Positions 19,599-61,116 of a stretch of DNA of 64,000 bases are shown in pieces. This DNA is from Coleofasciculus chthonoplastes F2-STO-03 (GTDB lineage Bacteria; Cyanobacteriota; Cyanobacteriia; Cyanobacteriales; Coleofasciculaceae): positions 28,712 through 92,711 of the forward strand of contig JAVJWO010000165.1 in the NCBI GenBank assembly GCA_040222015.1, in the 5' to 3' direction. Position 1 is the first letter of the stretch, and every line of letters starts with the position of its first letter. The translations under genes were made by a program, and so were the position numbers. Under the pieces are notes generated by a model, which made no database searches, was not told the DNA's origin, and worked only from the letters and a program-made list of their open reading frames with translations.

Positions 19599-19671
19599 GG
19601 GGGCGTAGCTCAATGGCTAGAGCAAAGACCTGTCGAGTCTGAGGTTGCGAGTTCAAGTCTCGTCGCTCCCG
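19599..19671 (+). tRNA. tRNA-Asp(GTC)
   Basis: Cloverleaf, acceptor GGGGGCG/CGCTCCC, loop CT-GTC-GA. Confidence 0.9.
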
Positions 19672-19677
19672 CTATCT

Positions 19678-19751
19678 GGCTCCATCGTCTAGGTGGACAA
19701 GGATCTCTGATTTTCGCTCAGAAGACACGGGTTCAAATCCCGTTGGGGCTA
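19678..19751 (+). tRNA. tRNA-Glu(TTC)
   Basis: GGCTCCA/TGGGGCT; TCTGA-TT-TTC-GC-TCAGA. Confidence 0.9.
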
Positions 19752-19846
19752 TGACATTGATGAACTAGGTCAAGTTGTCAAGGGGTTGAAGGGAATACTG
19801 ACAACTCCTACCTTGACCTTTAAAAGAAGCAGATTATTTGAGGAAG

Positions 19847-19919
19847 GGGAGTATAGCTCAACTGGCAGAGCATACGGCTTTTAACCGTCTGGTTGCAGGT
19901 TCGATTCCTGCTGCTCCCA
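19847..19919 (+). tRNA. tRNA-Lys(TTT)
   Basis: GGGAGTA/TGCTCCC; loop CT-TTT-AA. Confidence 0.9.
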
Positions 19920-19929
19920 CTCAATTTTT

Positions 19930-20002
19930 GGGAGTATAGCTCAGTCGGCAGAGCAGCACCCTCATAAGGTGCCAGTCGCAGGTTCAATCCTTGCTACTCC
20001 TA
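19930..20002 (+). tRNA. tRNA with CAT anticodon (elongator Met or Ile2)
   Basis: GCACC-CT-CAT-AA-GGTGC. Confidence 0.85.
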
Positions 20003-20009
20003 CTGCTCC

Positions 20010-20081
20010 AGCCTCATCGTCTAGTGGTTAGGACGCTGCCCCCTCAAGGCAGAAAGAGGAGTTCAAGTCTCCTTGGGGCTA
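20010..20081 (+). tRNA. tRNA-Glu(CTC), C at position 33
   Basis: AGCCTCA/TGGGGCT; CTGCC-CC-CTC-AA-GGCAG. Confidence 0.8.
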
Positions 20082-20084
20082 TCT

Positions 20085-20191
20085 GGAGAGGTGGCTGAAT
20101 TGGTGAAAGCACTTCCCTGCTAAGGAAGCATGGGGCAACCCATTGCAGCTACTCTTCGAGAACGCTCCGCGAACAAATCCTGTCCTCTCCG
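20085..20191 (+). tRNA. tRNA-Ser(GCT) with T-arm disrupted by a short insertion (probable pseudogene)
   Basis: GGAGAGG/CCTCTCC; CTTCC-CT-GCT-AA-GGAAG; long variable arm; GCAG[CTACTCTTCGAGAACGCTCCGCGAA]CAAATCCTGT. Confidence 0.8.
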
Positions 20192-20230
20192 CTTTGTGTA
20201 GTATATCGAACCAGACATACTACATATCCT

Positions 20231-20313
20231 GGGTCGGCTCGCCTATTAGGGTGGGCAACTGTCTGTAAAACAGCCGCTTTCATGCGTTGCAGGTGCGAAT
20301 CCTGCCCGACCCA
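20231..20313 (+). tRNA. tRNA-Tyr(GTA)
   Basis: GGGTCGG/CCGACCC; loop CT-GTA-AA; long variable arm; T-loop TGCGAAT. Confidence 0.85.
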
Positions 20314-20344
20314 TTGAATTTTGGTTTCAAAGTTCAAATCGAAT

Positions 20345-20418
20345 GTAGGGATAGTGTAACGGCAACATCTCGGTCTCCAAAACCGAGGATCTGAGTTCAA
20401 ATCTCAGTCCCTGCGCCA
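20345..20418 (+). tRNA. tRNA-Trp(CCA), CCA end encoded
   Basis: TCGGT-CT-CCA-AA-ACCGA. Confidence 0.9.
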
Positions 20419-20429
20419 ATCAAACATTT

Positions 20430-20503
20430 CCCCTGGTAGCTCAGTTGGGTAGAGCGCTTGCCTGAAAAGCAAGAGGTCGTCAGTTCAATACTGACCTAGG
20501 GGA
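20430..20503 (+). tRNA. tRNA-Phe(GAA)
   Basis: CTTGC-CT-GAA-AA-GCAAG. Confidence 0.9.
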
Positions 20504-20510
20504 CTGGCAT

Positions 20511-20585
20511 TGCCCTATAGCTCAATGGTAGAGCCACGCGCTGTTAACGCGGGGGTTGTAGGTTCGAGTCCTACTGGGGCAGCCA
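20511..20585 (+). tRNA. tRNA-Asn(GTT), CCA end encoded
   Basis: TGCCCTA/TGGGGCA; loop CT-GTT-AA. Confidence 0.9.
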
Positions 20586-20590
20586 TTTAT

Positions 20591-20665
20591 TGCCCTGTGG
20601 TGTAACTGGCAGCATATCTGACTTTGACTCAGACGGTCTAGGTTCAAAACCTGGCGGGGCAGCCA
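20591..20665 (+). tRNA. tRNA-Gln(TTG), CCA end encoded
   Basis: TCTGA-CT-TTG-AC-TCAGA. Confidence 0.9.
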
Positions 20666-20671
20666 AATGAT

Positions 20672-20745
20672 GCTCTTGTAGCCCAATGGGAAAAGGCACC
20701 ATCCTAAGAACCTAGTTGTTGCTGGTTCGAGTCCAGTCAGGGGTA
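20672..20745 (+). pseudogene. Degenerate tRNA (probably Leu); anticodon stem does not pair
   Basis: Acceptor GCTCTTG/CAGGGGT, D arm and GGTTCGAGTCC T arm present; ACCATCCTAAGAACCTAG unpaired. Confidence 0.6.
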
Positions 20746-20754
20746 TTGGTGATA

Positions 20755-20831
20755 CGCGGGGATGAAGCAAGAGTGGCTTGCTAGGCTCATATCCTGGATA
20801 TCAGCAGGTGCAACTCCTGCCCCCGCCACCA
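20755..20831 (+). tRNA. Initiator-like tRNA-Met(CAT), CCA end encoded
   Basis: CGCGGGG/CCCCGCC with C1:C72 mismatch; CTAGG-CT-CAT-AT-CCTGG. Confidence 0.8.
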
Positions 20832-20835
20832 AAAT

Positions 20836-20907
20836 GCAGGTGTGGTGTAATGGCTAGCATAGAAGCGTCGTATCCTTCTGATGCGAGTTCGACTCTCGCC
20901 ACCTGCT
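20836..20907 (+). tRNA. tRNA-Thr(CGT) with C31:C39 mismatch
   Basis: GCAGGTG/CACCTGC; GAAGC-GT-CGT-AT-CCTTC. Confidence 0.65.
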
Positions 20908-22940: not shown

Positions 22941-25900
22941 TTATTCCCATTCTCGCCACTGGTTCGCCCAGTTTTGGAAAATTCCCAGAATTTGCTCCCG
23001 TCGCTGTTCAAAATTAGCGGCAATGCTAATAAAAATGATGCCAGCGATTAAGCCAATGACCCATTTGGAAAAGGGATAGCGAAAACTTAAAACAACTAAC
23101 TGGTAAAATACCGTTAGAACAAATGTTGCTGTACCAACCATTAAAAATGCCCGAATTCGCAGTCCTAATCCAGCAAATAGGACAATCAGGCTAATGATTC
23201 CCGGAATGAGTCCAGTCTCTTGATGGAAAAAGAACGCGGCTAAACAAATGATGCTACTACCCAGTAAGCGGAGATAATGACGAGTTTGTCGTTTTCGGGG
23301 ATGTCTTAATTCTGGATCAATTTGGGCAATGTAGAGGCAAGATCCACCAATTAGGGCAGCATACCATAAGGGTTCAGTGATCTGTTGATTAACCAAAACC
23401 CGCCAGATTGCCCAATCAACAAAAAATAGACTCAAATATGTCCAGCGTAAATTAGACTGGCGGTTGGCAACCCAGGTATAAAATCCGGCAACGGCTAGTA
23501 AATTGATGGAAGATAGGGTTTGATAATTGAGGCAAACCGTTAGTAAAGGAGAGATAATGGCGTAATGTTGCCAAGGTTTATCATTCCATCCCCATCGTCG
23601 CCAAGGCAGTTGAAAAAGCGCGATCGCGAATAAACAAGCCATTACCCCTCTCCAAGGGTCAAATATACTCAACTGTGTCCATGTCAAACGCGCATAAACA
23701 CCTGTGGCGGCGACTTCGGTTAATCCGGCGTATATCCAGAGGTTAGCAGCCATGTAGAGACGTGCCATGGCGCGTCTGGGAGATGGGGGAGATGAGGGAG
23801 ATAACTGGCGTTTTTGTCTTATACGCCCCTGTAATAACGCATAAATAGCCAGTATCCAACTGATGGCAAGTCCGATGGTTCTCAGATTTGGTGTTGTTCC
23901 CACAGACATTCCCGCCGTTAACACCATCAGCAAACTGGCAATTGCCCAATGAATGTGGGCGGTGATTTTAATTTCAGTGATACTGAGGTTGAGAAGGGTG
24001 GAACGATCGCGCGATTGCCAAAACCAAGCCAACACTCGATAAATAACCGCGATCGCAGCCGCTACACCTCCTAGAATAGTAAAGCCATCTGCCGGATTTC
24101 CGCCATCGGCTTGCATCATCTGGTAAATTACCAATTCATACCAAGCAATGGAAATACCTGCTAGGGAAAGATAGGTGATCCCTTTCCAGGGAAGACGGCG
24201 ACGCCCTACGCCTATACCGGTTAATGCTGCACCGAGGGTGAGTAACCCGGTATAAGGGGTGAAATACGTCCAACGTAAACTAACGCCAATTAGGGCATAA
24301 ATTAAGGGTAAAATCTCCAGTGCATCCCTAGATGCGCCAGACGCGCCATGGCGCGTCTCTACAGGTTCCTCTGTATCCCCCTCTAAACGGGCAAACCACC
24401 AATCGGTGAGGAATAGTATCACAAGTGCCAGGATAATGTTGGCGGTGGCTAAGGTTAAGGATGAACCATTTCGTAACAGAATCGTATCCGCGATCGCTAA
24501 TTCGATTGCCCAACTGATGCCATAGACACCAAACTGTGTAAATGATCGCCAACAGCGAAACCAAATCGCACCGCCCATTAACACTGATGCGGCTAGGTAA
24601 TGCCAACTGGATGAAATGAGTTCGACGTAACTCTGGGTACTGTGCAGCGTTAGGAATCCTAATTCTGTAGAAGACAGGGCAATTGCCCATCTATCTGAGG
24701 CTTGGGCGTACAAGGCGGCTAAATCGCCAGATTGGGGAATTAAGCTAGCCCGTAGCAGCCACAATCCGAAACTTGCGATCGCACCAACCAAATACCAATC
24801 GGCGACAGATAGGGCGGGTAATCCGGGAATTCCTTGCCACAGCCATGCAGCAAAAAAGCTGAGGGCAAAACCAATCGTAATGACGGCGGTTACCGTTTGG
24901 CGCAAATAGCGACTATTCAGGAACATTACCACTGTGGCTACCCCTAAGCCAATCAGCCGACTCTGCGGTGAGGCTAGGGTTAGCCCTTGTACTAGAAATA
25001 ACGCGATCGCACTCCACGAAACTGCCTGAATGCGCCGCGATCGCTGAGTAAGACTGGCAACTCCAGTTAAGGTTAATGGGGTGAGTAACCATAAAAGTCC
25101 CCAAGGGTTAACCCTGAGCGAAGTCGAAGGGTGCGTGGGAAAGGGAATCAAATAGGTAACACTTTCCCCAGCCAGTAACACATAACTGATACCAGCGAGG
25201 ACAAAACCAATGTGCCAACAACTTAGATACCAACTCTGTTTGGGGACAGAAAACGGAGGATTTGCTGCTACCGTTTGCCCTTCCTGCCTTCTGGAAACCT
25301 CCTGCCTCCTGCCCGGTTGGTGAGCCTGTCGAACCACTGCCTCCTGCCTTCTGAAAGGTTCCTGCCTTATGCTCAGACTCCATTCTGCCACCATTAACGC
25401 TAACAATAAACTTGCCCAGAGGGGTTCGTTGAGAGTCGGAAACCATCCATCGATAAACGAACAGAGGGTTAATAATCCGGCGATATGGGTGAGATAAACT
25501 AGAGGAATTCGCAGCGGAGGGCGGCGATGAGTAACAATAGCCAGGGTGACAGTGGAGAGTAAAAGATTAAGCGATCGCGCCGTCGGATTCAGGCTACTGA
25601 TTACCGTTAACATCACACCCAATCCTAATGTGAGTCCTTCTCCAAACCGGGCTAATTTAGGATTCGACTTCCGATAGAGCCAATCGGTCAAACCTACCCA
25701 CAGAATAATGTAGGGAAATAGGACGACACCCCACCAAGCTTCCACGTTTGAACCCACCTGTTGAGAGAGGAAACTGACTACCTCATCTTGTACCGCCAAT
25801 GGGATTAATCGCCATAGTAAAAACAGCGTTTGCAAGCCAATCAAAAAGATAGCAGCTAAATCCAGACGCCGCCGAGAATACTGTAAGCGCTGGGCGAAAA

Positions 25901-26987
25901 ACCCAATCGCCAACCCACTAACCGCCGTGGCTTGCCAAGGAATTTCTTCTCCTACCGAAACCAACCAACCGATCAACAGTAATCCCCCGCCAATTCCATC
26001 CCAGACTTTTGTACTAAAGGAGGAAACAGACTCACGCGCGTCGGCTGAAGGCTTTCCCTGTCGCGCCAACAACCAACCACAGATTCCCATGGCTAAACCA
26101 AATTGGACAATTGGCACATTGATCACGAAAATCGCCCGTCCCAGCAACACCGTTAGGGCATAAATCACCACTAAACTACCGGTGGGTGGATTATTCGGCA
26201 CAGATGGAGAAGCGCGAGGGGTTGAAGCGGCAGAGGGGAGAAACATCGCAGTTCCGATGACGCCTAAATAAACAGCGACTAATGGAACCTGTGACCAATT
26301 CCAACCCCAGTGTAGATAACTTAACCATAAAACTAGAGAAGCACGGGAGGTAAGCCGGAATGAGTTGGTTTGGATAGACGGATTGATAACCGTAATTCCC
26401 GTTAAACTTAACGCCGCAATACCAACAACTATCCATTCCCAGGGATGACGCCCTAACCCAAAACCATCCATTGCCCAAAAATTCACTGGGACTAAAAGCA
26501 GGGCAATCAGTTGTAAGGTTTGAGAGGTTAATTTTAAATTAGAACGTTTTCCCGCCCACAGGCTAATGCCCCAAAAGACAATGGTATATGCCCATAACAC
26601 ACCATACTGTCCCGCTGGTGGAAAATTCTGCCATTGAGTTGCGGCGAGGACACCGGAGGAGACAACAACCAGAAAGACACCCAGAAACAGCAGCCAGCGT
26701 ACACTCAGTTCCTCTTGCCATGACTGCCAGATGCGGGATAGGGGCGACACAGTAGGAATAGGAACGGGTTCCTCTACCTTGGTTTCCACCTTCCGGGATT
26801 GGGGGCGAGAGGGAAGCGGCGCAATTGCTGGTTGAGGGAGGCGACAAGATAAATAGAGTTGTCCTAATTGTTTAACTTGGGCATCACTGATTAAACCCAA
26901 GCGCAACCAGGTTTCTAAACCTTCGAGTAACTTGGGATTGGAGGCAGAAACAGTGAGTTCAATTCTCAGAGAGCGTGGCGAGGACAT
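22941..26987 (-). CDS. Large polytopic membrane protein (DUF2157-like)
   Basis: Many TM segments; ELSVRWLLFLGVFLVVVSSGVLAA; likely start MSSPRS at 26987. Confidence 0.75.
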   Translation of the reverse strand: MSSPRSLRIELTVSASNPKLLEGLETWLRLGLISDAQVKQLGQLYLSCRLPQPAIAPLPSRPQSRKVETKVEEPVPIPTVSPLSRIWQSWQEELSVRWLLFLGVFLVVVSSGVLAATQWQNFPPAGQYGVLWAYTIVFWGISLWAGKRSNLKLTSQTLQLIALLLVPVNFWAMDGFGLGRHPWEWIVVGIAALSLTGITVINPSIQTNSFRLTSRASLVLWLSYLHWGWNWSQVPLVAVYLGVIGTAMFLPSAASTPRASPSVPNNPPTGSLVVIYALTVLLGRAIFVINVPIVQFGLAMGICGWLLARQGKPSADARESVSSFSTKVWDGIGGGLLLIGWLVSVGEEIPWQATAVSGLAIGFFAQRLQYSRRRLDLAAIFLIGLQTLFLLWRLIPLAVQDEVVSFLSQQVGSNVEAWWGVVLFPYIILWVGLTDWLYRKSNPKLARFGEGLTLGLGVMLTVISSLNPTARSLNLLLSTVTLAIVTHRRPPLRIPLVYLTHIAGLLTLCSFIDGWFPTLNEPLWASLLLALMVAEWSLSIRQEPFRRQEAVVRQAHQPGRRQEVSRRQEGQTVAANPPFSVPKQSWYLSCWHIGFVLAGISYVLLAGESVTYLIPFPTHPSTSLRVNPWGLLWLLTPLTLTGVASLTQRSRRIQAVSWSAIALFLVQGLTLASPQSRLIGLGVATVVMFLNSRYLRQTVTAVITIGFALSFFAAWLWQGIPGLPALSVADWYLVGAIASFGLWLLRASLIPQSGDLAALYAQASDRWAIALSSTELGFLTLHSTQSYVELISSSWHYLAASVLMGGAIWFRCWRSFTQFGVYGISWAIELAIADTILLRNGSSLTLATANIILALVILFLTDWWFARLEGDTEEPVETRHGASGASRDALEILPLIYALIGVSLRWTYFTPYTGLLTLGAALTGIGVGRRRLPWKGITYLSLAGISIAWYELVIYQMMQADGGNPADGFTILGGVAAAIAVIYRVLAWFWQSRDRSTLLNLSITEIKITAHIHWAIASLLMVLTAGMSVGTTPNLRTIGLAISWILAIYALLQGRIRQKRQLSPSSPPSPRRAMARLYMAANLWIYAGLTEVAATGVYARLTWTQLSIFDPWRGVMACLFAIALFQLPWRRWGWNDKPWQHYAIISPLLTVCLNYQTLSSINLLAVAGFYTWVANRQSNLRWTYLSLFFVDWAIWRVLVNQQITEPLWYAALIGGSCLYIAQIDPELRHPRKRQTRHYLRLLGSSIICLAAFFFHQETGLIPGIISLIVLFAGLGLRIRAFLMVGTATFVLTVFYQLVVLSFRYPFSKWVIGLIAGIIFISIAANFEQRREQILGIFQNWANQWREWE

Positions 26988-27179
26988 AGTTTTCTGGAGT
27001 TCGTTCGTAGTAGGCACGCTTCGTGCCAGAAGAAGCGCTGAAGCGCTTACTACAAACAGATTAATTAATCCTAGCATCAGATTTTCCAGTTGATGATTGA
27101 TGACTCAGGGCAAGTTGTTCCGTTAGTGGTGGGGAGGGCGGGTTTTGTTTTTCCGTTATTTCTGAATAGCTCAATTTAG

Positions 27180-27247
27180 TCCCTAAACCCGCCCCTACAA
27201 TTGTCCCTAAACCCGCCCCTACAATTGTCCCTAAACCTACCCCTACA
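27180..27247. repeat. Short tandem repeat TCCCTAAACCCGCCCCTACAATTG x~3
   Basis: Direct inspection. Confidence 0.8.
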
Positions 27248-27310
27248 GAGGGCTAAATCTACCCCTAGAATTGACGTATAAGGTATAAATTATTACTTAT
27301 GAACCGGATT

Positions 27311-27546
27311 GCGATCGCGCCTTGCGTACCCTGACTTCTAAGAGCCTACATACTTAGTACGAGAGGAAGAGTAACGCTGTTCTATTAACAGTGGGCGTTT
27401 GAGAACGAGGAGTGCGAAGAACCCGATAGGTTGGCTTAGAGGTAGCCATCCTTTAAAGAGTGTGTAATAACTCATCGGCGGAGTCCCTCTAGTAACTGAG
27501 AAGGCGCATAACAACGCTCTGGTAACTTGCACGCGAGGGCGATCGC
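27311..27546 (+). ncRNA. Putative ncRNA mimicking the 23S rRNA sarcin-ricin loop and GTPase-associated centre
   Basis: SRL hairpin 27351-27373 (AGTACGAGAGGA); H43/H44 copy 27423-27478 with compensatory changes; 5' and 3' ends complementary. Confidence 0.8.
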
Positions 27547-27596
27547 ACAATTACAGGATCTTGGACTATAATAGTACAAAAATACTAATTAAAATT

Positions 27597-28058
27597 ATGC
27601 CGATTTATTTCTACAGCACCCGTGAAAAACCCTACGGTTGCTTTTCCAACTTCTCTCGCCATGGTTTTGAGTTAGATGGTTGTTGGTGGGCAACGAGTGA
27701 ACATTACTTCCAAGCACAGAAATTTGTCGAGACGGATCGTCCTTGGTTCGACAAAATCCGCGAAGTAAAAACGCCTAAAGACGCTGCCAAAATGGGCAGA
27801 AGTCGGCAACACCCTCTCCGTCACGATTGGGAACAGGTCAAGAATGAAATTATGAAGCGGGGAGTGTTGCAGAAGTTTGAAACTCATGCTGATATCCGTG
27901 AGATACTTTTGGCGACAGGGGATGAGTTGATTGTCGAGAATGCCCCCAGAGATTACTACTGGGGATGCGGTAAAGATGGCAGTGGTAAAAATAAATTGGG
28001 AGAGATTTTAATGGCAGTGCGAGAGATATTGCGTCAACCTCTTACAAATGACAAATGA
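27597..28058 (+). CDS. NADAR family protein (YbiA/DUF1768)
   Basis: YGCFSNFS, TSEHYFQAQKF, LLATGD..IVE..DYYWG.G..G.GKNKLG.ILM. Confidence 0.93.
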   Translation: MPIYFYSTREKPYGCFSNFSRHGFELDGCWWATSEHYFQAQKFVETDRPWFDKIREVKTPKDAAKMGRSRQHPLRHDWEQVKNEIMKRGVLQKFETHADIREILLATGDELIVENAPRDYYWGCGKDGSGKNKLGEILMAVREILRQPLTNDK

Positions 28059-28118
28059 CAAATGACGAATGACGAATGACAATCTCCACCGTTAGCTTTT
28101 ATTGTGTCCACCCACTTA

Positions 28119-28191
28119 GGGTCTGTAGTTCTAATGGGAGAACGCCTGTTTTGCACACAGGAGGTTGCGGGTTCAACCCCCGCCAGATCCA
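28119..28191 (+). tRNA. tRNA-Ala(TGC)
   Basis: G3:U70 present; CCTGT-TT-TGC-AC-ACAGG. Confidence 0.9.
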
Positions 28192-28195
28192 TGAT

Positions 28196-28271
28196 GGTGT
28201 CTGAAGCCAAAGCGGTCGCGGCGCTTGTTTGTGGAACAAGTCAATAGCGGGTTCAAGTCCCGTCAGACACC
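28196..28271 (+). tRNA. tRNA-His(GTG)
   Basis: G-1:C73; CTTGT-TT-GTG-GA-ACAAG. Confidence 0.9.
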
Positions 28272-28278
28272 CTTCAAT

Positions 28279-28365
28279 GGAAGATGCCGCTGAATGGACG
28301 GCAAGCGGTCTTGAAAACCGTGGTACGGCAGCGATGCCGTAGGGGTTCGATTCCTCCATCTTCCT
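28279..28365 (+). tRNA. tRNA-Ser(TGA)
   Basis: GGAAGAT/ATCTTCC; loop CT-TGA-AA; long variable arm. Confidence 0.88.
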
Positions 28366-28369
28366 TTAT

Positions 28370-28441
28370 CCACCGGAAGCCGAAAAGTGAGGCGCTGTGC
28401 TGATAATGCAGAGGTAGAAGGGGCAGTACCTTCCCGGTGGA
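28370..28441 (+). tRNA. tRNA-Ile(GAT), atypical T-loop
   Basis: CCACCGG/CCGGTGG; CTGTG-CT-GAT-AA-TGCAG; T-loop GGCAGTA. Confidence 0.75.
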
Positions 28442-28446
28442 TTCAT

Positions 28447-28517
28447 CCCTCTGCCAGTGGATTCTGGCACTGATACTACGAATATCGGATGCGGTGGTTC
28501 AATTCCATCCAGAGGGG
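28447..28517 (+). tRNA. tRNA-Arg(ACG), atypical D arm
   Basis: CCCTCTG/CAGAGGG; TGATA-CT-ACG-AA-TATCG. Confidence 0.78.
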
Positions 28518-28558
28518 TTTGATCGGGGGTGAGTAGCTGTAATCAAAAAGCTGGAAAC

Positions 28559-28924
28559 ATTTACCCATTATTGCCCATGCATTGGGTAGAGACTTGTCCC
28601 GATGGAATGGGTTCGACAAGAGTAAGTAGTCGGACACAAGTTTTGGGAACTGTATAAAGTTTTGTAAGCATTACCGCAACGCTTGTGACATAAAAATTCG
28701 TGCTGTTTTACATTTCTTAACACAGAGCCGTTTATTTATGTCCGACTACTTATGTATACTTTTTGGTGTACCTATCCAGCCAAAAACCACAGCTAGATAG
28801 GTGACTTTATATAGCCGCCAGTTAGGTGGTGTTAGCCTGTGGACTGGTTAAGTGCCGTCACTGCCAGGATGAAGCAGGAAGTAAGTTCCAATGATGTCCA
28901 TGCTTTGGATAAGTTTGGGTAAAT
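28559..28924 (+). ncRNA. Putative multi-hairpin ncRNA in tRNA spacer, interrupted by a MITE
   Basis: Closing stem ATTTACCCA/TGGGTAAAT and several internal hairpins. Confidence 0.45.
28623..28752. mobile_element. MITE with TA-flanked TIRs
   Basis: TAAGTAGTCGGACA ... TGTCCGACTACTTA perfect 14-bp inverted repeat. Confidence 0.7.
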
Positions 28925-28933
28925 CTTATATAA

Positions 28934-29006
28934 CGGAATGTAGCTCAATTGGCAGAGCAGGTGACTCTTAATCACTGGGTTGCAGGTTCGATTCCTGTCA
29001 TTCCCA
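28934..29006 (+). tRNA. tRNA-Lys(CTT), C1:C72 mismatch
   Basis: GGTGA-CT-CTT-AA-TCACT. Confidence 0.85.
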
Positions 29007-29074: not shown

Positions 29075-29308
29075 ATGTCTGTACAAGCCATGAAAATACA
29101 AGATCTAAAACTAGAACTAATTCAGTGGATTTTATTATTGCAAGATGTTCAACTTTTAAATGAGATCCAGACTATCAAAGAAAATTCAGCGGAAAATATA
29201 GTCCCTACTAAGCCTCGCCAATTTGGTTGTGGCAAAGGTATTTTTAGTTATGTGGCAGATGATTTTGATGCAACACCTCCGGGTTTTGAAGACTATATGC
29301 TACCATGA
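29075..29308 (+). CDS. Antitoxin (DUF2281/VapB-like)
   Basis: KPRQFGCGKG...ADDFDATPPGFEDYM; ATGA overlap with PIN toxin gene. Confidence 0.8.
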   Translation: MSVQAMKIQDLKLELIQWILLLQDVQLLNEIQTIKENSAENIVPTKPRQFGCGKGIFSYVADDFDATPPGFEDYMLP

Positions 29309-29685
29309 ACTATTTAATTGATACTCATATCTTAATTTGGTTTCTTGAAGGGAACACTAACCTTTCTAAGCAGGCACAAGACTTAATCGGTAATCCTGCT
29401 AATTCCATTTATGTCAGTCAAGCGAGTTTGTGGGAAATGACCATTAAGATTAGTATCGGCAAGTTGTCTTTGTCGATTTCATTGTCTGAGTTAGAAATTT
29501 TTCTAATAAATAATCAGTTTCAAATTTTAGACGCTAAGTTTAGTCATTACGAAATATTGCAGCATTTGCCCTTTCATCATCAAGATCCTTTTGACCGCTT
29601 GATTATCGCTCAGGCAAAAGCCGAAGATTATATGATCATCACAAATGATAATCGCTTCAAACTGTACAATGTAAAATTGGTGTAA
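29305..29685 (+). CDS. VapC-family PIN-domain toxin
   Basis: LIDTHILIW, SLWEM.IK, HQDPFDRLIIAQA, ITND. Confidence 0.92.
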   Translation: MNYLIDTHILIWFLEGNTNLSKQAQDLIGNPANSIYVSQASLWEMTIKISIGKLSLSISLSELEIFLINNQFQILDAKFSHYEILQHLPFHHQDPFDRLIIAQAKAEDYMIITNDNRFKLYNVKLV

Positions 29686-29957: not shown

Positions 29958-30923
29958 CTAAGCCAACTTACTTAACTCTCCATTACTCTCCTCTGTTATT
30001 ATCGAACCAATCCCATCTAACGTCGCTGGAATCGTGCGCGGGTCCATAAACATGATCTTGCTGCTGTTACTACTACCAATTTTTATCCCCATATCCAAAT
30101 AGTTTTGTGCCAATAAAAACTGTAGTGCTTGGGCTGATGAGGGAGCAGTGTTTAACTTTTTGCTAAGAATATCCATCGCGGCGGCTGTCCCTTGCGCCTT
30201 GAGAACTTGCTGCTTTTGTTGCGCTTCCGCCTCCAAAATAGCGGCTCGTTGACGCGCTTCTGCCTCAATGATTTGTGCCTCAGCTTCCCCTCTGGCACTA
30301 TTAACCACTGCTTCTCGTTCTCCTTCCGATGTCAGAATTGCCGCCTGTTTTTTCCGTTCCGCTGACATCTGTAATTCCATCGCCCCTTGCACGGTTTTAG
30401 ATGGCACAATATCCCGCAATTCTACCCGTGTTACCTTGACTCCCCACGGTGCTGTGGCAATATCTAATTCCCGCAATAGCATTTCATTCACTTCAGTGCG
30501 GGCGGTAAAGGTTTGGTTCAGTTCAAGTTTCCCCATTTCTGAGCGAATTTGAGTTAACACTAAATTCACCATGGCGGCTTTCAGATTCTGAACTTTGTAA
30601 TAGGATTTTTCTAAATTAATGACCCGCCAATATACCACAGCATCCACACTAATCGAAACATTATCACGGGTAATGCAATTTTGCGGTGGAATCTCTAACA
30701 CTTGTTCCCGAATCGTTTGCTGACAGGCAATCTGATCGAGAAAAGGAATGACAAAGTTTAAACCGGGTTCCAGTTTTTTACCATCATATCGACCTAGGGT
30801 TTCAACTAACGCCTCTTCTCCCTGCTTAATGATTTTGACACTCCCGGCTAAAGTCGTCCCAGTTAATGCGATAAATGCCATAAATAACCACTGATACATT
30901 TTAATTCTCCTGTTGAAAGACAA
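29958..30923 (-). CDS. SPFH/stomatin-like protein
   Basis: [34 protein letters not shown]. Confidence 0.92.
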
Positions 30924-60809: not shown

Positions 60810-61116
60810 CTCTCGCCTGGGCAGTTACAGACTCGTGCTTTTAACCTGTACGATATGGGTGATTGTTGCCCCGTGAAGGGCGCTTCCGTTTCCGGAGTAA
60901 TGTGGGTCCTCGCATAAGTTATGCCTCGGTACTATCTCCAACACACTGGTTTAACCCTGTAAGCCTGTTTAATGCTGGAGTTCTAGAGCTTGGGGCTGGC
61001 ACGCACCCCAAGGTAGGAACTTTAACGCTTAGACATAACGTAGACCGCGTAGGTCTTAGGCTGGTCAGGTATGGGCTTGATTCAAGCCCCTAGCTGTCTT
61101 CTATGGGGTTCCTGAC
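60810..61116 (-). ncRNA. HEARO/omega-RNA (IscB-type) on a non-autonomous IS200/IS605-derived element without ORF
   Basis: Minus strand GTCAGGAACCCC..GGGGCTTG..CAAGCCC..CTGACCAGCCTAAG..CTACGTT..GGGGTGCGTGCCAGCCCC..TTAAACAG..GCGAGG..ACATTAC. Confidence 0.8.

Follow-up and report, generated by a model that had tools for sequence, protein, structure and literature searches.

The window analysed here is the whole 64,000-nucleotide (nt) stretch at positions 28,712 to 92,711 (forward strand) of contig JAVJWO010000165.1 from the cyanobacterium Coleofasciculus chthonoplastes F2-STO-03. It looks cyanobacterial in sequence, carries GCGATCGC palindromes, and has two tRNA clusters on the same strand (19599-20907 and 28119-29006). 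Between these clusters, at 27318-27536 (+), lies an element that joins copies of two sites of 23S rRNA, the sarcin-ricin loop (SRL) and the GTPase-associated centre (GAC), and to which a covariance model derived from 104 homologs assigns 223 bits. This SRL-GAC element is a conserved, structured RNA gene of about 210-220 nt, which is non-coding and copies the two rRNA sites faithfully. The initial annotation, made from the sequence of the window alone, had taken it for a dedicated small RNA, and the conservation and structure described below agree with such a gene and not with an rRNA relic. The element occurs once in the assembly, which contains no assembled 23S gene or rRNA operon. Its parts, the NADAR-domain open reading frame (ORF) that starts 61 nt past it, and the tRNAs that follow are listed in Table 1.

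Table 1. Parts of the SRL-GAC element and genes directly downstream (positions of the window).
Feature	Position	Strand	Partner or evidence
P0, outer 5' palindrome GCGATCGC	27311-27318	+	sequence; partner 27539-27546
P1, 5' strand	27323-27328	+	partner 27530-27535; helix 92.8% paired, double changes in 4/6 pairs
P2, 5' strand AGAGC; H94-like closing helix of the four-way junction	27338-27345	+	partner 27516-27522
SRL (H95-like) hairpin; 12-mer at 27356-27367	27351-27373	+	stem 92.1% paired
P4 hairpin, in the position of H96	27375-27393	+	compensatory changes in 7/7 pairs; top of unbiased covariation scan
P5, 5' strand, base of the GAC arm	27395-27400	+	partner 27502-27507; U-A 68/C-G 19, U-A 41/G-C 25
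P6 GAGG, H42-like lower stem	27407-27410	+	partner CCTC 27486-27489; covariation, similarity to H42 5' strand
H42-top/H43/H44 three-way junction, look-alike of the L11/thiostrepton domain	27423-27478	+	LSU match 52.4 bits, helices 8-13, base triple
Unpaired segment TAGTAACTGAGA between P6 and P5, near-invariant in the alignment	27490-27501	+	homolog alignment
P2 and P1 3' strands with conserved AACTTGC linker	27516-27535	+	alignment; motif recurs in cassettes with other cargos
P0, outer 3' palindrome GCGATCGC	27539-27546	+	sequence
NADAR-domain ORF, directly downstream	27597-28058	+	Pfam PF08719, E 8.2e-44
tRNA-Ala, -His and -Ser, continuing the array on the same strand	28119-28365	+	ARAGORN; order kept in relatives

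Two ribosomal RNA modules in one fold

The first module is the SRL. Its 12-mer AGTACGAGAGGA agrees with the universal 12-nt SRL sequence AGUACGAGAGGA and sits within a TACTT/AGAGTA hairpin, as had been described initially. With up to one mismatch allowed, the 12-mer occurs a single time in the window against 0.13 expected occurrences, and 13 of 100 shuffles contain at least one. Folded alone, the hairpin is thermodynamically unremarkable (-1.5 kcal/mol, z-score +0.80), which is expected because the motif is held by non-canonical pairs, and it is no positive evidence either. Rfam did not report the SRL separately in the element.

The second module, about 50-55 nt further on, is the H43-H44 domain of the GAC. 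It matches positions 1093-1148 of the Rfam model of bacterial large subunit (LSU) rRNA with 52.4 bits and E 1e-12, above the gathering score of 50 (47.2 bits in a local search), so the initial assignment of this stretch is sustained. The copy in genome G036 matches positions 1077-1160 of the same model. The stretch folds at -17.5 kcal/mol (z -3.22), a value that none of 200 shuffles equalled. No Rfam family other than LSU matched the element region, and no described family covers it. Because the LSU match labels the locus as rRNA, the element would probably escape any screen in which Rfam rRNA matches are masked.

The minimum free energy fold of the whole element was only weakly better than that of shuffles (z -1.75, 9/200 equal), and the RNAalifold consensus paired the SRL wrongly with the P6 strand. 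Therefore the structure was set by hand (50 pairs) and then tested on the 104-sequence alignment against 500 shuffles and against slid partners. Standard pairs filled 93.7% of the cells, compared with 88.5% in the shuffles and 36-53% with slid partners. Changes on both sides were found in 29 of the 50 pairs (15.8 in shuffles), and compensatory cells numbered 340 (85 ± 17 in shuffles); none of the 500 shuffles reached any of these observed values. A naive all-against-all covariation scan was noisy beyond P4. A pairing of GGAGTG with the P2 3' strand had a good scan score, but it has A/C clashes and fails in the divergent clade, and P2 was preferred by eye.

The fold obtained is a four-way junction closed by P1 and P2, and its arms are the SRL hairpin, P4 and a long arm. 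The long arm runs through P5, P6 (GAGG/CCTC) and P7 and ends in the H43/H44 three-way junction. The pairing of the ends, claimed at first from the sequence, is real for P1, which is conserved and covarying and is lengthened by CCTT/GAGG in the genus of the window organism; the GCGATCGC palindromes lie outside it. One P2 pair is A-U in 44 and G-C in 38 sequences. The C-G pair closing the GAGA tetraloop of the SRL is present in 102/102, and two of the five stem pairs show double changes. The SRL sequence is also compatible with the bulged-G cross-strand stack of this motif.

Helices 8-13 of the GAC are 97.7-100% paired. They include covarying pairs, one being C-G in 63 and U-A in 39 sequences, another G-C in 47, A-U in 35 and G-U in 20. 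A known tertiary base triple of the GAC is 1072/(1092-1099), in the 23S numbering assumed here. In the homologs it is U/U-A in 97 and C/C-G in 3, with 2 exceptions (n=102). Because these positions switch together, we argue that the native tertiary fold of the GAC is kept.

BLAST against the true 23S genes of two complete genomes (G036 and G040) aligned 67 nt at 79-81% identity, corresponding to the H42 5' strand, H43 and H44, and it also aligned the SRL plus a few upstream bases. The H42-like flanks reported in the initial annotation stand in part: the 5' strand is similar, the 4-bp GAGG/CCTC stem covaries and a 4-bp top stem is supported, while the internal loop differs and the remainder of the H42 3' strand is unrecognisable in the element.

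The statement that no other 23S sequence is recognisable went too far. In the Rfam consensus of domain VI, the closing helix H94 is followed directly by H95 (SRL), H96 and H97. The element has the same topology: an AGAGC/GCTCT closing helix, the SRL and a mini-hairpin, as in the H94/H95/H96 junction, and then the GAC arm in the place of H97. The likeness to domain VI is claimed for topology and short motifs only. An extended collinear homology 5' of the SRL ('GCGT, 14 nt, GAGC') was rejected as a mis-registration against the Rfam domain VI structure. In the ribosome itself, the tip of H97 is in contact with the GAC (PMC2330231), so a native-like relation of SRL and GAC within the element is plausible.

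In summary of the comparison with the 23S factor-binding centre, the element has the identical SRL 12-mer, matching H43/H44 sequence and pairing with the covarying triple, a similar H42 5' strand, and a junction resembling H94/H95/H96. It differs in having about 215 nt instead of 2.9 kb, in its modules being about 50 nt apart and reversed, and in lacking the H42 3' strand, H97 and all else, and it is found in tRNA arrays, not in rRNA operons.

That two stretches are clearly 23S-derived, in an assembly without an rRNA operon, could suggest a neutral relic of rearranged dead 23S fragments or an assembly artefact. The element is, however, neither collinear with 23S nor part of an rRNA operon: its modules are in reversed order with about 1600 nt missing, and the complete genomes G036 and G040 hold intact 23S genes far from it. 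Its non-collinear arrangement, with identical order and boundaries, is found again in 104 homologs of many genera, which show compensatory changes; the copies embedded in arrays are always on the tRNA strand, and the element is present in RNA libraries. Since full 23S genes exist separately and the order is constant, the element is not an rRNA relic, and this explanation is effectively refuted.

Homologs, genomic setting and expression

The alignment contained 104 homologs (102 distinct rows), and both modules are kept in all of them, the SRL always preceding the GAC. Distinct rows with an unchanged SRL 12-mer number 102/102, a count to be read with the fact that 77 of the 104 homologs were collected by a pattern requiring this 12-mer; it is likewise invariant in the 27/27 homologs found by BLAST. 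These BLAST-found copies are near full-length and occur in 27 of 61 related genomes, in several families of the order, with 70-99% identity. When one genome per species was searched with the two-module pattern, at least 121 stretches matched, and 78 of the 80 loci fetched were true homologs. The confirmed homologs among the matches listed were all cyanobacterial (Nostoc, Microcoleus, Moorena, Fischerella, Calothrix, Tolypothrix, Laspinema, Okeania and others). Matches in a Patescibacteria and in a Thermoplasmatota metagenome-assembled genome were chance matches, not homologs. Homologs in phages, which the initial annotation had suggested looking for, did not appear: viral contigs gave 0 matches to the two-module pattern.

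The covariance model was also run on 151 genomes drawn evenly across the phylum and found 12 full-length copies in 11 genomes. Its other strong matches (about 50-68 bits, model positions ~87-170) were the GAC of true 23S genes. Weak full-model matches had about 22-38 bits, and those inspected in other loci share the outer scaffold only. Two plasmids in PLSDB carry the element, one of Kovacikia and one of Dolichospermum, the latter in unannotated intergenic DNA. A partial second copy without P1 and P2 (L046:8743-8892, model positions 33-189, 74 bits) lies 2.7 kb downstream of a full copy in genome G002. Shorter remnants were seen in G004 and G001, and none in the genome of the window.

In relatives, the order on one strand is Gly-Gly-Val-Arg, the element, and then Ala-(Ala)-His-Ser. 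A same-strand tRNA lies within 100 nt upstream in 51 of the 104 loci, this being tRNA-Arg or a tRNA with a CUA anticodon, and tRNAs within 100 nt bracket the element on both sides in 30 of 104. The arrays are of the same type as those reported as long tRNA arrays (PMC8421152, PMC10272220), and translation inhibitors elicit a response of the trn operon and of its regulon (PMC8421152, PMC10272220). The translation-stress array setting proposed initially is borne out, and homologs do occur in other arrays.

Beyond that proposal, about half of the copies are outside arrays, behind TrcR-type promoters or upstream of genes for NADAR, Tpt1, RNA ligase or the OB-fold protein described below. No same-strand tRNA is present on either side in 48 of 104 loci, and 28 of these 48 have a TGTAGTA-type box within 70 nt upstream. 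In Anabaena, the TrcR operator of the trn operon is TGTAGTAT, overlapping the -10 box (PMC10272220). Judged by sequence, the box of the standalone copies matches this site at the trn promoter and is a putative TrcR site.

The element thus has in common with the long tRNA arrays and the TrcR regulon its genomic home, its strand and the operator motif TGTAGTAT, and also the neighbours, namely HNH, RtcB-type repair genes and GNATs (PMC8421152, PMC10272220). It differs in that term searches of the text of these two papers, figures and supplements aside, turned up no non-tRNA RNA in the arrays.

Palindromes of the GCGATCGC type on both flanks were found in 27 of 51 array-embedded copies, against 5 of 53 copies with no upstream tRNA within 110 nt. 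The outer stem they form could serve in excision. In L017, L019, L020, L032 and L034 the tRNA directly upstream has a CUA anticodon (ARAGORN 'Pyl'), and in other arrays it is tRNA-Arg(UCU). The CUA-anticodon tRNA is possibly an amber-suppressor-like member of the array.

The window copy is missing the upstream tRNA-Arg. An opposite-strand ORF of 1378 aa (22941-27077 (-); a weak sub-threshold DUF2157 match, nothing in PADLOC) separates the element from the tRNA array, and the place where relatives have tRNA-Arg is taken by a tandem repeat of 24 nt (27179-27247, 2.9 copies, 95% matches). A promoter scan directly upstream of the window copy found no sigma-70-type site.

Further downstream, some 70 nt past tRNA-Lys, two overlapping ORFs occupy 29075-29685 (+), one of 77 aa and one with a PIN domain (VapC-like, Pfam E 3.7e-18). 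Some VapC toxins cleave the SRL of 23S rRNA (PMC8661411), and a link between the PIN-domain ORF and the SRL mimic is conceivable. An SPFH/Band-7 protein is encoded at 29958-30923 (-) (Pfam E 8.9e-37); the slipin-family gene alr0740 belongs to the TrcR regulon (PMC10272220, Table 1). A HEARO RNA was identified at 60897-61116 (-) with 136.9 bits, and most cyanobacterial L-arrays are reported to be preceded by an HNH endonuclease (PMC8421152).

For the 104 loci, genes on the same strand with a start no more than 750 nt past the element were tallied. They encoded an orphan protein of about 276 aa with a predicted OB-fold (25 loci), NADAR (17 loci, including the window ORF), an AAA ATPase (6 loci), Tpt1/KptA RNA 2'-phosphotransferase (5 loci), an Rnl-type RNA ligase fused to a tRNA-binding domain (5 loci), a GNAT (1 locus) and an M90 peptidase (1 locus), and 45 loci had none of these. 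The neighbour genes point to RNA damage and ADP-ribose chemistry. Tpt1/KptA followed by a 400-aa AAA ATPase is a recurrent pair; the element stands upstream of it in L031, L089 and L098, and the window organism has the pair on another contig (C72:14221-16012).

The orphan protein (e.g. L057:1525-2355 (-), and 24 other loci) is encoded downstream of copies that are not tRNA-flanked. It had no match in Pfam, NCBIfam or PADLOC, and a PDB sequence search and the ESM Atlas returned nothing. The family has 1251 close homologs, or 706 representatives at 50% identity. A first AlphaFold model had a predicted local distance difference test score (pLDDT) of 50, and with a deep alignment pLDDT was 93. The predicted fold matches only OB, S1 and cold-shock RNA-binding domains (Foldseek E 5.5e-4 or weaker, VIA Z at most 7.3), and a predicted match of this strength is generic. 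The genome of the window has only a 52-aa fragment of this protein.

RNA evidence came from metatranscriptome contigs of four studies, which were aligned to the window; uncovered parts and runs with a small share were not used. The contigs stem from related organisms. In run X1 a 194-nt contig covers 27316-27507 with 4 mismatches at a depth of 2135, and the flanking NADAR/tRNA contig has a depth of 35, i.e. the element is up to 60-fold deeper than its flank. Runs X2 and X3 cover 27310-27567 at depths of 327 and 228, with flanks at 309-399 and 81.5, respectively. A biocrust run (X11) holds Microcoleus-type element pieces at depths in the thousands. The element RNA is probably expressed, either along with the tRNA arrays or from promoters that bear the TrcR operator motif. 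No circular junction at P1 was found in the RNA contigs, where the 'goes back' joints involve a repeat near 28044-28082, and the contigs are not decisive on this point.

The element could also be read as a cis-regulatory leader, i.e. a 5' untranslated region which senses a ribosomal protein, an antibiotic or rRNA-directed damage and controls the downstream ORF, much as rRNA-mimicking leaders of ribosomal-protein genes do. This would suit the 48 loci without tRNA on either side, many of which have a same-strand ORF about 20-260 nt downstream, and it would suit the NADAR ORF placed close behind the window copy. But the 30 tRNA-bracketed copies have no ORF to regulate, the downstream genes belong to at least seven unrelated families, and no terminator or Shine-Dalgarno-sequestering alternative fold was seen. 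The 60-fold higher depth than that of the downstream ORF in one run is as expected for a separate, stable RNA. We consider a leader function quite improbable.

A scaffold shared with tRNA-like cargos

The outer scaffold of the element consists of P1, a CCYWAC bulge, P2, a TTACATAC-like motif and the AACTTGC linker, and it recurs around differing cargos. Five such cassettes stand in L042 (2274-2399, 2523-2676, 2732-2857, 2981-3131 and 3190-3310), and further ones in L043, L044:7958-9340, L066:61-175, L088 and L105. One type of cargo is an ordinary-looking tRNA whose acceptor 5' strand is the scaffold CATAC. A second type has an anticodon arm, a T arm, a closed acceptor hairpin and a D arm, in a permuted, YrlA-like order, and the anticodon loops differ. 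A third type is non-tRNA. Because the scaffold is common to such varied cargos, the SRL-GAC RNA is one cargo of a cassette family; the genome of the window has the SRL-GAC cassette only.

The permuted cargo matches Rfam YrlA below threshold (34-36 bits, gathering score 69, E 6e-6), and pairs of tRNAs score similarly. Y RNA and YrlA (RF02553) resemble the element in having a stem formed by the ends, a module that mimics another RNA, and linkage to RNA-repair genes, and the sister cassettes on its scaffold have the YrlA-like tRNA-mimic order. They differ in that the element itself has no YrlA match and that the mimicked RNA is rRNA here and tRNA there. Y RNAs also belong to Ro60-RtcB operons, whereas a Ro60/TROVE gene was not found in the genome of the window (99.99% complete) nor in four of the five other carriers searched. 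The fifth, G040, has a TROVE gene about 4.7 Mb from the element.

It might be proposed that the element is a Y-RNA-like tether. The P1-bulge-P2 scaffold would bind a protein of its own, for which the OB-fold protein and the AAA ATPase are candidates, and the rRNA-mimic module would bring it to recognisers of SRL and GAC, or would recruit rRNA-handling enzymes through look-alike recognition; the tRNA-like cargos would do likewise for tRNA-handling enzymes. The tRNA-like cargos on the same scaffold (L042, L043, L044, L066, L088 and L105), the partial YrlA resemblance of one cargo type, and the OB-fold protein after 25 of 104 copies, with its confident model and RNA-binding-domain fold matches, speak for it. 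The scarcity and distance of TROVE, the sub-threshold YrlA score which tRNA pairs equal, the generic nature of the OB-fold matches, and the mere fragment of this protein in the genome of the window speak against it. On balance we regard the tether as unlikely.

Possible roles of an off-ribosome factor-binding site

Tentatively, the most likely role we see for the element is that of a target mimic or decoy which works off the ribosome as part of a response to RNA damage. The RNA would be released from the array transcript by tRNA processing on both sides and/or by cleavage in the P0/P1 stem, and would fold into an off-ribosome copy of the factor-binding site. Binding of L11 would be expected because the fold is conserved, and L10/L12 might bind as well. 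When translation is under stress or RNA is damaged, this copy could act as a target mimic, taking the hits of agents directed at SRL and GAC, such as rRNA ADP-ribosyltransferases, SRL nucleases or glycosidases, and thiopeptides. In addition, the copy may present the damage to the co-encoded NADAR de-ADP-ribosylase, Tpt1/KptA and RNA ligase, and to RtcB of the same regulon.

Several reports are in line with such chemistry, and the family TIGR02452 named among them is PARG-like. An Rhs toxin of the type VI secretion system ADP-ribosylates bases 1095-1098 in H44 of the GAC (PMC8661411), and NADARs are the sole hydrolases found to reverse guanosine ADP-ribosylation of RNA (PMC11833690). The TrcR regulon includes rtcB and a protein of family TIGR02452 (PMC10272220, Table 1).

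The following points weigh against this mimic or decoy. A decoy must compete with very abundant ribosomes, and the surroundings of the copies yielded no toxin gene directed at the SRL/GAC site. Only 17 of the 104 copies have NADAR behind them, and 45 loci have no tallied enzyme gene at all in the flank.

The loop tips of the GAC weigh on the same side. On the ribosome these tips contact thiostrepton and EF-G (domain V of EF-G at 1067 and 1095-1097), and A1067 and A1095 are near-universal in 23S rRNA. Among the 102 sequences of the family, position 1067 has A 88 times, G 12 times and C twice, and 1095 is A in 94, G in 5 and C in 3, while there is free variation at 1096 and 1097. These tips ought to be retained in a perfect mimic, so their variation weakens a strict reading as a thiopeptide sponge, which the initial annotation had raised. 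In two runs, furthermore, the element is only as deep as its flank or about three times deeper. The RNA contigs are assembled, RNA ends are invisible in them, and carry-over of DNA is not excludable. Finally, the Anabaena 7120 plasmid with the trn operon, which is protective in experiments, was not among the PLSDB carriers (its presence in PLSDB was unchecked), and tRNA arrays may therefore work without the element.

The main rival is a sponge or platform for factors or ribosomal proteins. With L11, and perhaps L10/L12, the RNA would be a free mini factor-binding site that binds EF-G, EF-Tu, IF2, BipA, HflX or free stalk proteins. In this way translation under stress would be slowed or re-tuned, or GTP would be hydrolysed away from the ribosome. 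All 104 homologs unite both docking elements of translational GTPases in one fold, with the SRL 12-mer that activates GTP hydrolysis kept invariant. The GAC arm occupies the H97 place of domain VI, whose tip the ribosomal GAC touches (PMC2330231), isolated SRL RNA binds EF-G and IF2 (PMC3496166), and expression is tied to a translational-stress regulon (PMC10272220). The variable tips at 1067 and 1095-1097, which are contacts of EF-G on the ribosome, are less easily reconciled with it. No GTPase or stalk-protein gene was linked in the flanks examined, and the linked RNA-repair and ADP-ribose enzymes would be unexplained. We hold the sponge to be rather doubtful.

Two known cases of rRNA copies off the ribosome may be compared with the mimic or decoy. 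Ribosomal-protein leaders, e.g. of the L10/L11 operon, mimic rRNA binding sites, and in this they are like the element. They are short, cis-acting mRNA leaders which loosely copy one site, whereas the element is a free-standing RNA gene and carries near-identical copies of two sites. No ribosomal-protein gene was among the first downstream ORFs examined, where tRNAs, NADAR, Tpt1, ligase, AAA ATPase and the OB-fold protein stand instead. In the 'ribosome-in-pieces' approach, oligonucleotides of the SRL and of the thiostrepton domain bind EF-G in vitro, and these pieces keep factor, L11 and drug binding. They are the same two rRNA pieces off the ribosome, separate and synthetic there, and joined in one natural, conserved transcript here.

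The initial annotation knew of no description of such an RNA, and we likewise found none in Rfam 15 or by full-text searches of the literature, subscription-only papers, figures and supplements aside. Term searches in a survey from 2026, which covers RNA structures of 202 cyanobacterial genomes, did not bring up the element either.

Taken further, the element might be a free-standing miniature of the factor-binding centre, of about 215 nt. A domain-VI-like junction would hold the SRL and the L11-stalk base as in the ribosome, and with L11 (perhaps L10/L12) it would form a ribonucleoprotein that GTPases, toxins and thiopeptides mistake for a ribosome. It would be made on demand from stress-induced arrays and would be one cargo of a scaffold-cassette system in which tRNA mimics are displayed too, with ligase, Tpt1 and NADAR as its repair enzymes. 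As a whole, this picture is rather doubtful.

If the element works as a mimic, no other RNA in nature is known to copy the GTPase-docking site of the ribosome as it would, and next to ribosomal-protein leaders, 6S RNA and Y RNAs it would represent a new principle of translation protection or regulation. The cooperation of SRL and stalk base, which is usually approachable with whole ribosomes only, could then be studied on an RNA of 215 nt. A function would also be at hand for the orphan bacterial enzymes Tpt1/KptA and NADAR and for the puzzling long tRNA arrays, and the common scaffold points to displayed RNA mimics as a larger family that is still unexplored.

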